Sequence record: OR167180
DNA from: Escherichia phage MIZ4
Direction: 5' to 3' (one strand)
Length of the DNA stretch: 64,000 nt
The translations under genes and the position numbers were made by a program. Positions 61,461 to 64,000 of this stretch are shown here, one piece after another (within the stretch, counting starts at the first letter, position 1; the number at the start of each line of letters is the position of its first letter). The notes beneath the pieces are model-generated. The model ran no database searches, had not been told where the DNA came from, and saw nothing but the letters and a program-made list of their open reading frames with translations.

Positions 61461-62939
61461 TTAAATGTCAAACAGGTCAGTCAGAGATGCCACTTTTTCA
61501 TATTGCAGCTTTGCAGCCGTGGTAATGTTCTCCAGTGGTTTGACGAAAGTCTTATTAAACAACAAAGGCCAGTCCAACCACTTCAACACCTCTGATTCAA
61601 TTTCTGGCGGAATACGAGTACCAGACAACCAACCAAAACAGATTTCACCAAACGGATTTCGATCTTTCAGCGGTACAATCATAACCTTCTCGCCCTCACG
61701 AATCGGATCTAGTCCGAATTTTCGAGCATTACGATTATAACACAATACACTCTTAACCGCATACGGACAACCCTTAATCGGATACCCGTTTGAATCGCTG
61801 TATTTCTGTAGGTTGTTTGCAGATGATACCGCAGCAACATCAAGATAGTCAAGTTTTCTAAATTCTTGCTCAAAAATACCGTAGTATTCCTGCAATGAAT
61901 CTTCACCTTCCTGCAACATACGGCGAATACATTCTTTCAGTGATTTCTGACATGCTTTAGGGGTGGAGCTACGTTGCGTTTCCAAGCCCATGATTTTTAG
62001 CTTAGGTTCAGCAAAGCGCGTTCCTTCCATATCCCAAACATTAAGAGCATACCGCTTTTTACCAGTCCAGAATCCACCGATACCCGCAGATTTCAACGGA
62101 GGACCAGCAATTGCCTCTCGGTCCATAAACATCAAGTGCTCATAGTTGTTCATGTACTCGCATAACTCGCGATATCCCTTGTCGATAATAGGTTCCATTC
62201 GATGTTTACCGAAATTATCAAGGAAGTCAACAAGTTTTTCGGTATCGTCGAAACGGTCTTCCCCGCCAACCTTATCAATAACATTGTTAACCAGCACATA
62301 AACGGAGTCAGTATCACAATAACGAACATATGCAAAATCAGTCGTTCCGCAAAGCTCGTTTAAGTATTCGTTAATCTTACGCTCAATCCACTGAATTGCA
62401 AGCTGACCGAACAGTGTGATCGCACTAGCGTTACGGAGATCATAAAAACGGAATTTAGGATTCCCCAACGCACCATAAAGGGAGTTGATCAAAACTTTTC
62501 GAGAAAGCTGGTTTGTATTGCACAAGATCGACTCGTCTTTACATTCTTCCAGCAATTTCTCTAAGGCATCTTTACTTAATTCAGAAAGCATCGATTTAAA
62601 CGCTTCATCAAAGTCGTGACGCACTTCAACGCTATAGCTAATGGTTCCCCCATAAACATGATTTTCATCGTGTAGAATCGCTTTACATAGTTCAGCATTG
62701 CGATCACATGCCAACATCATGTTTTTGTACTGCTTACGCTGATCGAATACCTTTTTAATCTCAATCGGTACGATACCATGAATATCTTTTCGATACATCC
62801 ATCCGTTAGGCGAGCAAGAATACTCATCACTAGGACGCGGTGCAGTTTTATTGATATACTCGTGCATCGGTGCAGCATCAAAAGATCCAGCGATTGTTTC
62901 AGGCGAAATATTAACCTGACGGATGATTGATGGATACCA
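61461..62939 (-). CDS. 43: DNA polymerase gp43, 3' exon (C-terminal ~490 aa); 5' exon lies beyond the window
   Basis: ORF track 61461..62867 extended in frame to the stop at 62940-62942; YPSIIRQVNISPETI (motif A), YCDTDS (motif C), KKRYALNVWDMEGTR. Confidence 0.85.
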   Translation of the reverse strand, partial: WYPSIIRQVNISPETIAGSFDAAPMHEYINKTAPRPSDEYSCSPNGWMYRKDIHGIVPIEIKKVFDQRKQYKNMMLACDRNAELCKAILHDENHVYGGTISYSVEVRHDFDEAFKSMLSELSKDALEKLLEECKDESILCNTNQLSRKVLINSLYGALGNPKFRFYDLRNASAITLFGQLAIQWIERKINEYLNELCGTTDFAYVRYCDTDSVYVLVNNVIDKVGGEDRFDDTEKLVDFLDNFGKHRMEPIIDKGYRELCEYMNNYEHLMFMDREAIAGPPLKSAGIGGFWTGKKRYALNVWDMEGTRFAEPKLKIMGLETQRSSTPKACQKSLKECIRRMLQEGEDSLQEYYGIFEQEFRKLDYLDVAAVSSANNLQKYSDSNGYPIKGCPYAVKSVLCYNRNARKFGLDPIREGEKVMIVPLKDRNPFGEICFGWLSGTRIPPEIESEVLKWLDWPLLFNKTFVKPLENITTAAKLQYEKVASLTDLFDI

Positions 62940-64000
62940 TTATGTTCAGCGCGGTTCGCTACTCCCGCGCCCGTTCTCTTGCGAACTGCTACATGTCACC
63001 ATGTAGATCAGACTATATCACATTCTCATAGAGAATCCTGCCATTTCGAATCGCTTGATTCTACTCTACTCGGTTCGTTACCCTTTCGATAGTCGTTGAA
63101 CAACTGCATCTTTAAGCTCATTTTGATCAAACGGTGTTCTCTTACAGTACCCGCTATAATTCTTGGCAAAAGGTTTCTTCTTACCAAAGATCTCTTTTCC
63201 TGAATTATGTGCTTCAACAAGAAAATTCACCATTTCATCAAATGTGAAACTTGTAAATTTAGCATAAGTTTCATTACGTTTTGACATTATTTTACTCATA
63301 ACTTCCGGTCGTTTAGACGCTGAATTTTCGCGCTTCTCGCCAGCATTAAATGATACTAACTCACCGGAAACATATCTAGGATCATCACAACTAACTCTAA
63401 ACCGATTTCCTTCCTTATCCTTAACGATAACAGTATTCTTTAGCTTTTCTGCCATAGAATCAAGACCTTTTCGTATAGTGTCCTCATCAGCCCCGAAATA
63501 TTTCTTTCCGCTCATATCGGTTCTGGCTTTTCCGGTCTTGTTTTCGGATATTTTCAGTCTAACTTCCTCTCGCTTGGCTGGGTTATTGTCTCCAGCGAAT
63601 GCATCTTTGGTTAACGCCTTCACTTTATCGTCATAAGATCCTCTAGAGATGAAAGCATATGCTCTCTTGCATTCACCGTTATTGAATATTAAGCACAATA
63701 ACCGATGCGCCTCGACGTGGTCTTCAAACTTAAGCCTAACAAGATTCCATTTATCTAACCGATATTCAGGGAACATTGACTTCGGGCATATATGATGCAC
63801 CTCGGAATATTCTTCACCCTGATACGGATTAGACACCAGTTTAATGTAGTCGTTTAATGCTTCCTCGTTATGTATTTCGTACTTTCTTAAAATGTCTTTC
63901 ATCTCGCGCCTCCAATGTATATCAATATTTATATACATTATAAGACACGTTAGCTCAAAATGCAACTGCTGCTGATTGTCTCCTTAGAGATTTCCCAGCA
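62940..64000 (-). mobile_element. intron-like insertion (probable group I intron, 3' part) in gene 43 carrying an HNH endonuclease ORF
   Basis: in-frame stop inside Pol-B motif A, ~140-nt structured noncoding segment, endonuclease ORF, no 5' exon before window end. Confidence 0.6.
63078..63902 (-). CDS. HNH homing endonuclease with NUMOD-like repeats (intron-encoded)
   Basis: ORF track 63078..63965 trimmed to ATG with GGAGG RBS; EVHHICPKSMFPEY...WNLVRLKFEDHVEAH; GDNNPAKREEVRLKISE and NSASKRPEVMSKIMSK. Confidence 0.7.
   Translation of the reverse strand: MKDILRKYEIHNEEALNDYIKLVSNPYQGEEYSEVHHICPKSMFPEYRLDKWNLVRLKFEDHVEAHRLLCLIFNNGECKRAYAFISRGSYDDKVKALTKDAFAGDNNPAKREEVRLKISENKTGKARTDMSGKKYFGADEDTIRKGLDSMAEKLKNTVIVKDKEGNRFRVSCDDPRYVSGELVSFNAGEKRENSASKRPEVMSKIMSKRNETYAKFTSFTFDEMVNFLVEAHNSGKEIFGKKKPFAKNYSGYCKRTPFDQNELKDAVVQRLSKG

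Follow-up and report, generated by a model that had tools for sequence, protein, structure and literature searches.

Analysis of a 64,000-nt stretch of Escherichia phage MIZ4 (OR167180; hereafter the window, of which positions 61,461-64,000 on the minus strand are relevant here) indicated that DNA polymerase gene 43 is interrupted by an insertion which is very probably a mobile group I intron (phage IA2 type, sister to the nrdB intron of the T-even phages) with its own homing endonuclease gene; its catalysis, expression timing and cleavage activity are features that we infer from the sequence. A self-splicing intron with an endonuclease had been proposed in a preliminary description of the window, and this proposal is supported by homology of the core to proven phage introns, by covariation of paired bases, by a U·G pair at the 5' splice site, by a terminal G, and by restoration of the polymerase open reading frame (ORF). 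On this evidence the intron is real but an ordinary mobile element: it is built like the classical T-even introns and represents, with its endonuclease gene intact, an intron that had previously been flagged in the sister phage JSE.

Position and limits of the insertion in gene 43

The last 1.6 kb of the window (62400-64000, minus strand) were found to be 100% identical to Escherichia phage MIZ5 (OR167181, Krischvirus, RB49 group), and the identity remained 100% throughout the 4601-nt overlap of the two sequences. Beyond the window edge, the MIZ5 record (L001) was read instead, with the window coordinate being equal to 67001 − L001 coordinate. Alignment with the intronless gene 43 of RB49 and with JSE set the limits of the insertion, which comprises 1114 nt on the minus strand, from window position 62938 to about 64051 (MIZ5 L001 2950-4063). 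As had been supposed, the 5' splice site and exon 1 lie outside the window, and judging from MIZ5, 51 nt of the intron and the whole of exon 1 are beyond its end. The insertion point is located after the second base of a Leu codon in PolB motif A, D-L-T-S-L↓Y-P-S (arrows mark junctions), while the 3' splice site falls between G62938, the final intron base, and G62937, the third base of this codon (CT↓G). The interruption of motif A claimed in the preliminary description is therefore genuine, with the refinement that the break is inside the Leu codon and not between codons. At this site, RB49 gene 43 reads …AGC TTT GAC TTA ACA AGT CTG TAT CCA TCA…, MIZ5 reads …AGC TTT GAC CTT ACT TCC CT↓AAACTGATATGGGG … AACATAATG↓G TAT CCA TCA…, and the predicted spliced junction is …ACTTCCCT↓GTATCC…. 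Joining exon 1 of MIZ5 to exon 2 yielded an ORF of 2679 nt (892 residues), the same length as RB49 gene 43, whose product is colinear with RB49 gp43 without a single gap and identical to it at 888 of 893 positions (stop included).

Within the window, the C-terminal ORF of gene 43 spans 61461-62867 (minus strand), and its first ATG is at 62865-62867. Upstream of this ATG, just as originally noticed, the frame remains open as WYPSIIRQVNISPETIAGSFDAAP back to an in-frame TAA at 62940-62942, and there is no in-frame ATG, GTG or TTG between the two. The 70 nt of exon 2 preceding the ATG (62868-62937) differ from RB49 at three positions, all of them synonymous, which indicates that this stretch is translated and under protein-level selection, and its translation requires splicing to exon 1. 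These observations bear on the possibility that the polymerase is split, that is, that a free-standing endonuclease gene breaks gene 43 into two separately translated cistrons, the products of which would assemble with each other without any splicing. Precedents for such an arrangement are Aeromonas phages 44RR and 25 (43A/43B) and nrdA/mobE of Aeh1. GenBank records do annotate two 'DNA polymerase' coding sequences (CDSs) flanking the endonuclease gene, related metagenomic phages have an additional 43A/43B split further downstream, and split gp43 is documented in T4 relatives (PMC2988022). However, the first ATG of the downstream piece is not preceded by a Shine-Dalgarno sequence, and a start at this codon would drop YPSIIRQVNISPETIAGSFDAAP, including the motif A Tyr, leaving untranslated 24 codons, YPSII among them, that are conserved as described above. 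Furthermore, the two pieces are separated by a complete group I core with covariation support, and exact excision of the intron restores the reading frame. We therefore regard a split polymerase as highly improbable. An intein was ruled out as well, since the frame of exon 1 stops two codons into the insertion (…SLN, then stop), and the TAA precedes exon 2.

Intron core and splice sites

All group I helices were located (cf. Table 1), and the segments GUUCAACGACUA and GAUAUAGUCU fit the consensus of Rfam RF00028. The window ends exactly at P4 (63995-64000), with P1, P2 and the 5' strand of P3 lying beyond it. When the window alone was compared with Rfam, the 5' half was misaligned, as P1-P3 are missing there and P6 holds the ORF; the JSE copy and a hand-built structure on ORF-less cores were used instead. 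In the alignment of ORF-less cores, which brought in homologous introns occupying this site in Ackermannviridae polymerase genes, the pairs of P2, P3, P4, P5, P6, P7, P7.2, P8, P9, P9.1 and P9.2 were counted. Standard pairs filled 96.6% of 496 cells, versus 34-47% when the 3' partners were slid by 1-3 columns, and compensatory double changes were found in 25 of 62 pairs, versus 1-4 in the slid controls, while the observed covariation score was reached by none of 500 shuffles. Covariation extends to all pairs of P2 and to three or four pairs in each of P3 (for example, CCUGCU/GGCAGG versus CUCUCU/GGAGAG), P9 and P9.2; P6 has three conserved basal pairs with one C-G to A-U change, and P4 and P7 are invariant and hence uninformative. 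The two hairpins that the preliminary description had reported in the noncoding stretch proved to be P9 (62989-63006) and P9.2 (62948-62971).

MAFFT placed the 5' exon one base out of register, and P1 was judged by eye and left out of the pair counts. The 5' splice site reads …UCCCU↓AAACUGAUAUGGGG in MIZ5 and JSE, and its U is paired (U·G) to the leading G of the guide sequence GGGG (P1, CCCU/GGGG). The UCCCU/GGGG combination is kept in all 10 of the 10 homologues examined, with covariation (A-U, U-A) between the first base of the intron and the one preceding GGGG. A possible P10 consists of GAUAU and GUAUC, the first bases of exon 2. At the other end of the intron, the ending GAACA(U/C)AA..G, in which the expected terminal G was found at 62938, is shared with the RB3 nrdB intron and with every homologue.

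Two further observations concern the core. First, GUUCGC at the start of P9.1 and GCGAAC in the P9.2 loop (window 62948-62986) are perfectly complementary, and weaker equivalents occur in Dickeya phage LIMEstone1 (GUUCG/CGAGC) and in a Vibrio phage (GUCG/CGAC). A pseudoknot of these segments, which would have a 0-nt loop and looks sterically impossible, was rejected; they may form an alternative or tertiary pairing. Second, the exact 19-mer GTTCAACGACTATCGAAAG (P6'/J6-7/P7) was found in at least 120 viral contig stretches, often several per contig, and it is a handy marker for such phage introns. The 207-kb contig IMGVR_UViG_3300031555_003522 has at least six stretches with this conserved P7 19-mer and is unusually intron-rich; another group I intron in it (L033 1-330; also L030-L034), ending …AAUAAAAAUG↓UUUGCUUCGCUAUACCCAUCU, interrupts PolB motif A four codons upstream, at D↓FASLYPSL. 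The genes around the MIZ4 insertion are the usual T4-type replication set (44, 62, regA, 43, uvsX, 40, 41).

Table 1. Features of the interrupted gene 43 of phage MIZ4 (window coordinates)
Feature	Position	Strand	Evidence or remark
Exon 2 of DNA polymerase gene 43	61461..62937	-	stop codon 61461-61463; G62937 completes Leu of S-L-Y-P-S
Group I (IA2-type) intron, in-window part	62938..64000	-	RB49/JSE alignment, Rfam RF00028 match, covariation; full 1114 nt to ~64051
Intron 3' end AACAUAAUG	62938..62946	-	terminal G (omega G) at 62938; contains in-frame TAA 62940-62942
P9.2 hairpin (GGCGCGG / CCGCGCU), conserved UAGCGA loop	62948..62971	-	compensatory changes in 4/7 pairs
P9.1 hairpin (GUUC / GAAC)	62973..62986	-	compensatory changes in 2/4 pairs
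P9 hairpin, 7-bp stem, GUGA tetraloop	62989..63006	-	compensatory changes in 4/7 pairs; 100% of cells paired
P7 3' strand AUAGUC, within GAUAUAGUCU	63011..63016	-	invariant in all homologues; fits Rfam consensus
P8 hairpin	63022..63036	-	compensatory changes in 2/6 pairs; 100% of cells paired
P3 3' strand GGCAGG	63037..63042	-	partner CCUGCU at ~64005-64010, outside window; compensatory changes in 3/6 pairs
P7.2 hairpin (GAAUC AAGC GAUUC)	63048..63061	-	compensatory changes in 2/5 pairs
Endonuclease gene, 274 aa, HNH type, two NUMOD3-like repeats	63078..63902	-	in P6 loop; ATG 6 nt after GGAGG
P7 5' strand GACUAU, within conserved GUUCAACGACUAUCGAAAG	63089..63094	-	Rfam match; overlaps last endonuclease codons
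P6 3' strand AUGCAGUUGU	63100..63109	-	inside endonuclease ORF; pairs with 63960-63969
Hairpin over Shine-Dalgarno	63905..63949	-	centroid -18.6 kcal/mol, z = -3.15; box in loop and 5' arm
Late-promoter-like box TATAAATA, T4-type	63926..63933	-	32 nt upstream of endonuclease ATG
Candidate operator UUUGAGCUAACGUGUCUUAU, resembling exon junction/homing site	63940..63959	-	suggestive only
P6 5' strand GCAGUUGCAU	63960..63969	-	partner of 63100-63109
P4 63995-64000 / P5 63979-63990 / P4' 63970-63975	63970..64000	-	fits Rfam consensus; P4 invariant, P5 with one compensatory change

Endonuclease, its regulation and the mobility of the element

A stretch of about 135 nt devoid of an ORF (62943-63077) separates the in-frame TAA from the endonuclease ORF. 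The HNH motif that had been recognized in this ORF was borne out by comparison with 38 homologues (26-77% identity) drawn from a large protein collection: of the catalytic pattern E34-x-H36-H37…N53…H62-x3-H66, residues E34, H36, H37, H62 and H66 are invariant, as are P40 and L69, while N53 is at least 90% conserved. The motif also lines up with the NLxxLxxxEHxxxH motif of I-TevIII. The protein matched PHROG 12434 'HNH endonuclease' with an E value of 5.7e-131, as well as PHROG 655, and in tblastn the first 70-120 residues were linked to endonucleases of the Mob-like kind from T-even and Acinetobacter phages. The predicted structure has a beta-beta-alpha fold at residues 33-73 (pLDDT 88.7), the elements of which (beta 33-37, beta 54-58 and alpha 59-73) are modeled with a pLDDT of about 95. 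As for the two NUMOD-like repeats noted earlier, NUMOD3-like NNPAKREEVRLKIS and NSASKRPEVMSKIM are indeed visible by eye, but they fall below the Pfam threshold (NUMOD3, E = 0.3), and one of the 38 homologues gave E = 2e-4 with this model. The C-terminus VVQRLSKG, encoded by P6'/J6-7/P7 (GUUGUUCAACGACUAUCGAAAGGG), is the best-conserved stretch outside the catalytic motif among these homologues, as expected if the RNA core constrains it. This endonuclease family has neither a curated profile nor a characterized member, and it could be of practical interest as a source of a new long-site nuclease.

Upstream of the endonuclease, the late-promoter-like box is found 27-38 nt before the ATG in all Straboviridae homologues; its form in Ackermannviridae is CTAAATAC, and JSE, with its dead endonuclease gene, has the mutated form TATAGATA. 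In the lower stem of the hairpin, GGAGG (63909-63913), the Shine-Dalgarno sequence, is paired with upstream GUCUU, and an equivalent hairpin is formed in every homologous lineage from differing sequence. RNA begun just past the box would be devoid of the hairpin's 5' arm, a design that was experimentally shown for I-TevI and proposed for I-TevII, I-TevIII and Aeh1 mobE (PMC2988022). Colinear similarity to the spliced exon junction is seen, in most lineages, in the sequence at the box or upstream of it (in L135, for example, TCATTT-GACGTGACATCCCTGTAT aligns with TCTTTTAGACGTAACTAGGCTGTAT). A gapped multi-lineage comparison gave a joint P of ~0.001 versus control windows of the same exon, with the lineages not being independent of each other, while an ungapped 20-mer comparison of the homing site with the promoter region of MIZ4 alone gave 13 matches in 20, which was equalled by 120 of 300 shuffles and is not significant. 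These similarities offer a hint only that 63940-63959 is a candidate operator like that of I-TevI.

The anatomy of the element led us to propose the following cycle. Early or middle gene 43 pre-mRNA would fold into P1-P9.2, as the structure suggests, and an external guanosine would attack just 3' of the exon U that is in U·G pairing with GGGG of the guide sequence. G62938, the terminal base, would then dock and the exons would be ligated, so that CT↓G would again encode Leu and full-length polymerase would be made. In read-through transcripts, the Shine-Dalgarno sequence of the endonuclease would be buried in the hairpin, and transcripts begun at the TATAAATA box would lack the 5' arm of that hairpin, allowing the endonuclease to be made late, as for I-TevI. 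In co-infecting relatives with an intronless gene 43, the enzyme would cut or nick this gene close to the motif A site, and repair from the intron-bearing copy would spread the intron together with a short flanking exon tract. A bolder proposal, which we consider possible but rather doubtful, is that a single intron-endonuclease lineage is aimed at one and the same nucleotide of PolB motif A in two families, Straboviridae and Ackermannviridae, and that its HNH enzyme would read about 20-25 bp over the sequence coding for FDL(T/N)SL↓YP and bind a mimic of this site overlapping its own late promoter (autorepression in the style of I-TevI). If this were true, the element could be a weapon against intronless co-infecting phages, besides being selfish.

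The full element was present in 11 of 67 matching phage records, JSE (two records) had a deleted form, and most of the others had the exon only; the presence is patchy among genomes that are ~98% identical. Ten isolates other than MIZ5 are 98-99.9% identical to the window end, among them Cognac, ECD7, G2494, JEP8, G5211, ELT4, kvi, PTE-Eco09 and JK32, and the endonuclease ORF is intact, at 98.5-100% identity, in all 11 of the 11 full copies. That the interruption is an artefact of assembly or annotation, or that the polymerase gene is a dead pseudogene, is scarcely credible: nothing besides the interrupted ORF itself speaks for it, whereas the same structure occurs in 11 independently sequenced viable phage isolates and in JSE, and homologous forms exist in other genera and families. 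The JSE intron is the same one minus 650 nt of the endonuclease ORF, lost between AAGAAT repeats (window 63809-63814 and 63159-63164), and measures 464 nt. Its mutated box (L002 3068-3075, equivalent to window 63926-63933) is accompanied by a G-to-A mismatch that breaks a P9.2 pair (L002 3400-3410, within window 62948-62971), and these changes are small signs of decay accompanying the gene loss. Within a single genus, MIZ4 (intact), JSE (decayed) and RB49 (empty) form a homing-cycle series at the same site.

The 11 nt immediately 5' of the insertion differ from RB49 at six positions, all synonymous, and it is these six changes that create the UCCCU pairing with the guide sequence; the cluster looks like a co-converted donor exon. 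None of the intronless Krischvirus alleles has the intron-type exon flank, and they give no sign of precise intron loss. Homologous introns at the identical PolB position were found in Ackermannviridae, namely Dickeya phage LIMEstone1 ('I-LimII' locus), Salmonella phages maane, SeF6a, CRW-SP2 and LPST94, and Vibrio phage 1.244.A, and the same site is occupied in other T4-like phages, Pectobacterium phage POP12 and three metagenomic contigs, with endonucleases 53-65% identical. Mobile introns have repeatedly targeted the Leu codon beside the Tyr of PolB motif A in different phage families. In about a dozen Krischvirus and many Ackermannviridae genomes, the polymerase is listed as 2-3 CDSs plus a hypothetical protein, and such annotations should be replaced by one spliced gene and an intron-encoded endonuclease.

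Several polymerase genes with this intron or a homologue of it were found to carry further interruptions. The 154-kb T4-like contig ENA ERZ27260095 k141_49174 (L138 8596-15297), L133 and L134 have the same motif A intron with its endonuclease, and in all three gene 43 ends about 100 codons into exon 2 (…NTELLKSLI, then stop). In L138, the C-terminal half of PolB (390 aa, PF00136) resumes about 2.8 kb further on, past five small ORFs and a NUMOD3-like gene on the opposite strand; gene 43 is thereby divided into 43A and 43B roughly where it is divided in Aeromonas phages 44RR and 25, except that a large insertion of genes separates the halves. Within the 2.5 kb read downstream in L133 and L134, the C-terminal half was not seen. 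The polymerase genes of Ackermannviridae have a second interruption downstream (L004 4911-5753, L005 5116-6250), which in LIMEstone1 holds an opposite-strand endonuclease gene (I-LimIII) and in Vibrio phage 1.244.A includes an intron core (L005 5991-6250, 80.1 bits with RF00028) after two further ORFs.

Several points weigh against a mobile group I intron in MIZ4. The window lacks P1, P2 and half of P3, which were taken from the identical public record of MIZ5. The match to the group I covariance model RF00028 amounts to 32.8 bits (E = 3.4e-6) in the window and to 42.9 bits (E = 1.5e-9), end to end, in the shorter JSE copy, both under the curated gathering threshold of 50 bits. As controls, the proven, ORF-bearing nrdB intron of RB3 gave no match at E <= 0.01, and an ORF-less intron in a Vibrio phage polymerase gene scored 80.1 bits, indicating that the threshold penalizes large loop inserts and not the gene 43 intron specifically. 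The endonuclease had no match in Pfam, NCBIfam or PDB in sequence (phmmer) and profile searches, and TATAAATA is no commoner than chance in the window (4 sites versus 5.5 expected). Finally, endonuclease and host polymerase diverge in parallel (57% versus 53% and 35% versus 27% identity), a pattern that would be equally consistent with long vertical residence, as opposed to frequent transfer, and each clade seems to have kept its own intron lineage for a long time.

This last point also fits an intron that splices but whose endonuclease no longer homes, the protein being inactive and a mere passenger, a nickase that serves some other function, or a product kept only because the 3' end of its gene doubles as ribozyme core, with vertical inheritance in a Krischvirus sub-lineage. 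The decay of the gene in JSE, where the intron stays, and the lack of a match to curated HNH models agree with such an explanation. Nevertheless, we consider it improbable in view of the intact ORF in every full copy, the catalytic residues that are invariant across homologues down to 26% identity, the conservation of the promoter box and hairpin, which are degraded in JSE alone, the patchy distribution among closely related genomes, and the synonymous cluster that abuts the site. A mobile intron with its own homing endonuclease is the interpretation that we prefer.

Comparison with known systems

A 'putative group I intron' in gene 43 of JSE was flagged in a 2010 review (Petrov et al., Virol J, PMC2993671), which makes the present finding less novel than the preliminary description implied, although that mention came without position, structure or experiment. 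The JSE intron belongs to a phage of the same genus, lies at the same nucleotide position and has a ~99% identical core; it differs from the intact MIZ4 form by the 650 nt lost, by TATAGATA in place of TATAAATA, and by the P9.2 mismatch. Our literature searches found no paper on the intact-endonuclease form, on its structure, or on the site being shared across families. The earlier remark that T4 has no intron at this site of gene 43 was right. The current understanding of phage introns is left unchanged by the gene 43 intron.

I-LimII has been listed as a putative intron endonuclease in the polymerase gene of LIMEstone1 (PMC3296691). The introns of this Dickeya phage and of other Ackermannviridae are inserted at the identical point of motif A (DLNSL↓YPH) and have cores 71-75% identical to that of MIZ4, and their endonucleases, with 34-39% identity, occupy the same loop and show the same overlap onto P7. 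Unlike the MIZ4 intron, they reside in another phage family with a polymerase whose exon 1 is about 27% identical, they have larger P7.1 and P9.1 and the box CTAAATAC, and a second intron is present further downstream in the gene.

Intron 25.g43B of Aeromonas phage 25 and phiAS4, found with seg43(25), is likewise of group I; it has been characterized in phage 25, where it too interrupts gene 43 of a relative of T4, and its core is 71% identical over 117 nt. It was considered as a further same-site case and dropped, as it sits in motif B (KILINSLYGA↓); it is also ORF-less, and its host gene is split into 43A and 43B. According to Petrov, Ratnayaka and Karam (2010), 25.g43B is probably mobilized by a free-standing gene of the GIY-YIG type.

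The T-even nrdB intron (T4; intact in RB3) has a core identity of 69% in the 5' part and 74% in the 3' part, and blastn against the RB3 intron gave 81% over 95 nt. Both introns share the order of helices, the ORF in the P6 loop, P9.1 and P9.2, and the 3' end GAACAUAA(U/C)G, and in both a late promoter lies inside a hairpin upstream of an ORF for an HNH-type endonuclease. They differ in host gene and insertion site, and I-TevIII resembles the gene 43 endonuclease in the catalytic motif only (BLASTP E = 0.81). The td intron differs in that I-TevI is a GIY-YIG enzyme, and in that the regulation of the gene 43 element is deduced here from its sequence. Nonetheless, the gene 43 element, like td, has a late promoter placed so that only late transcripts would free the Shine-Dalgarno sequence from the hairpin, as well as a candidate operator resembling its homing site.

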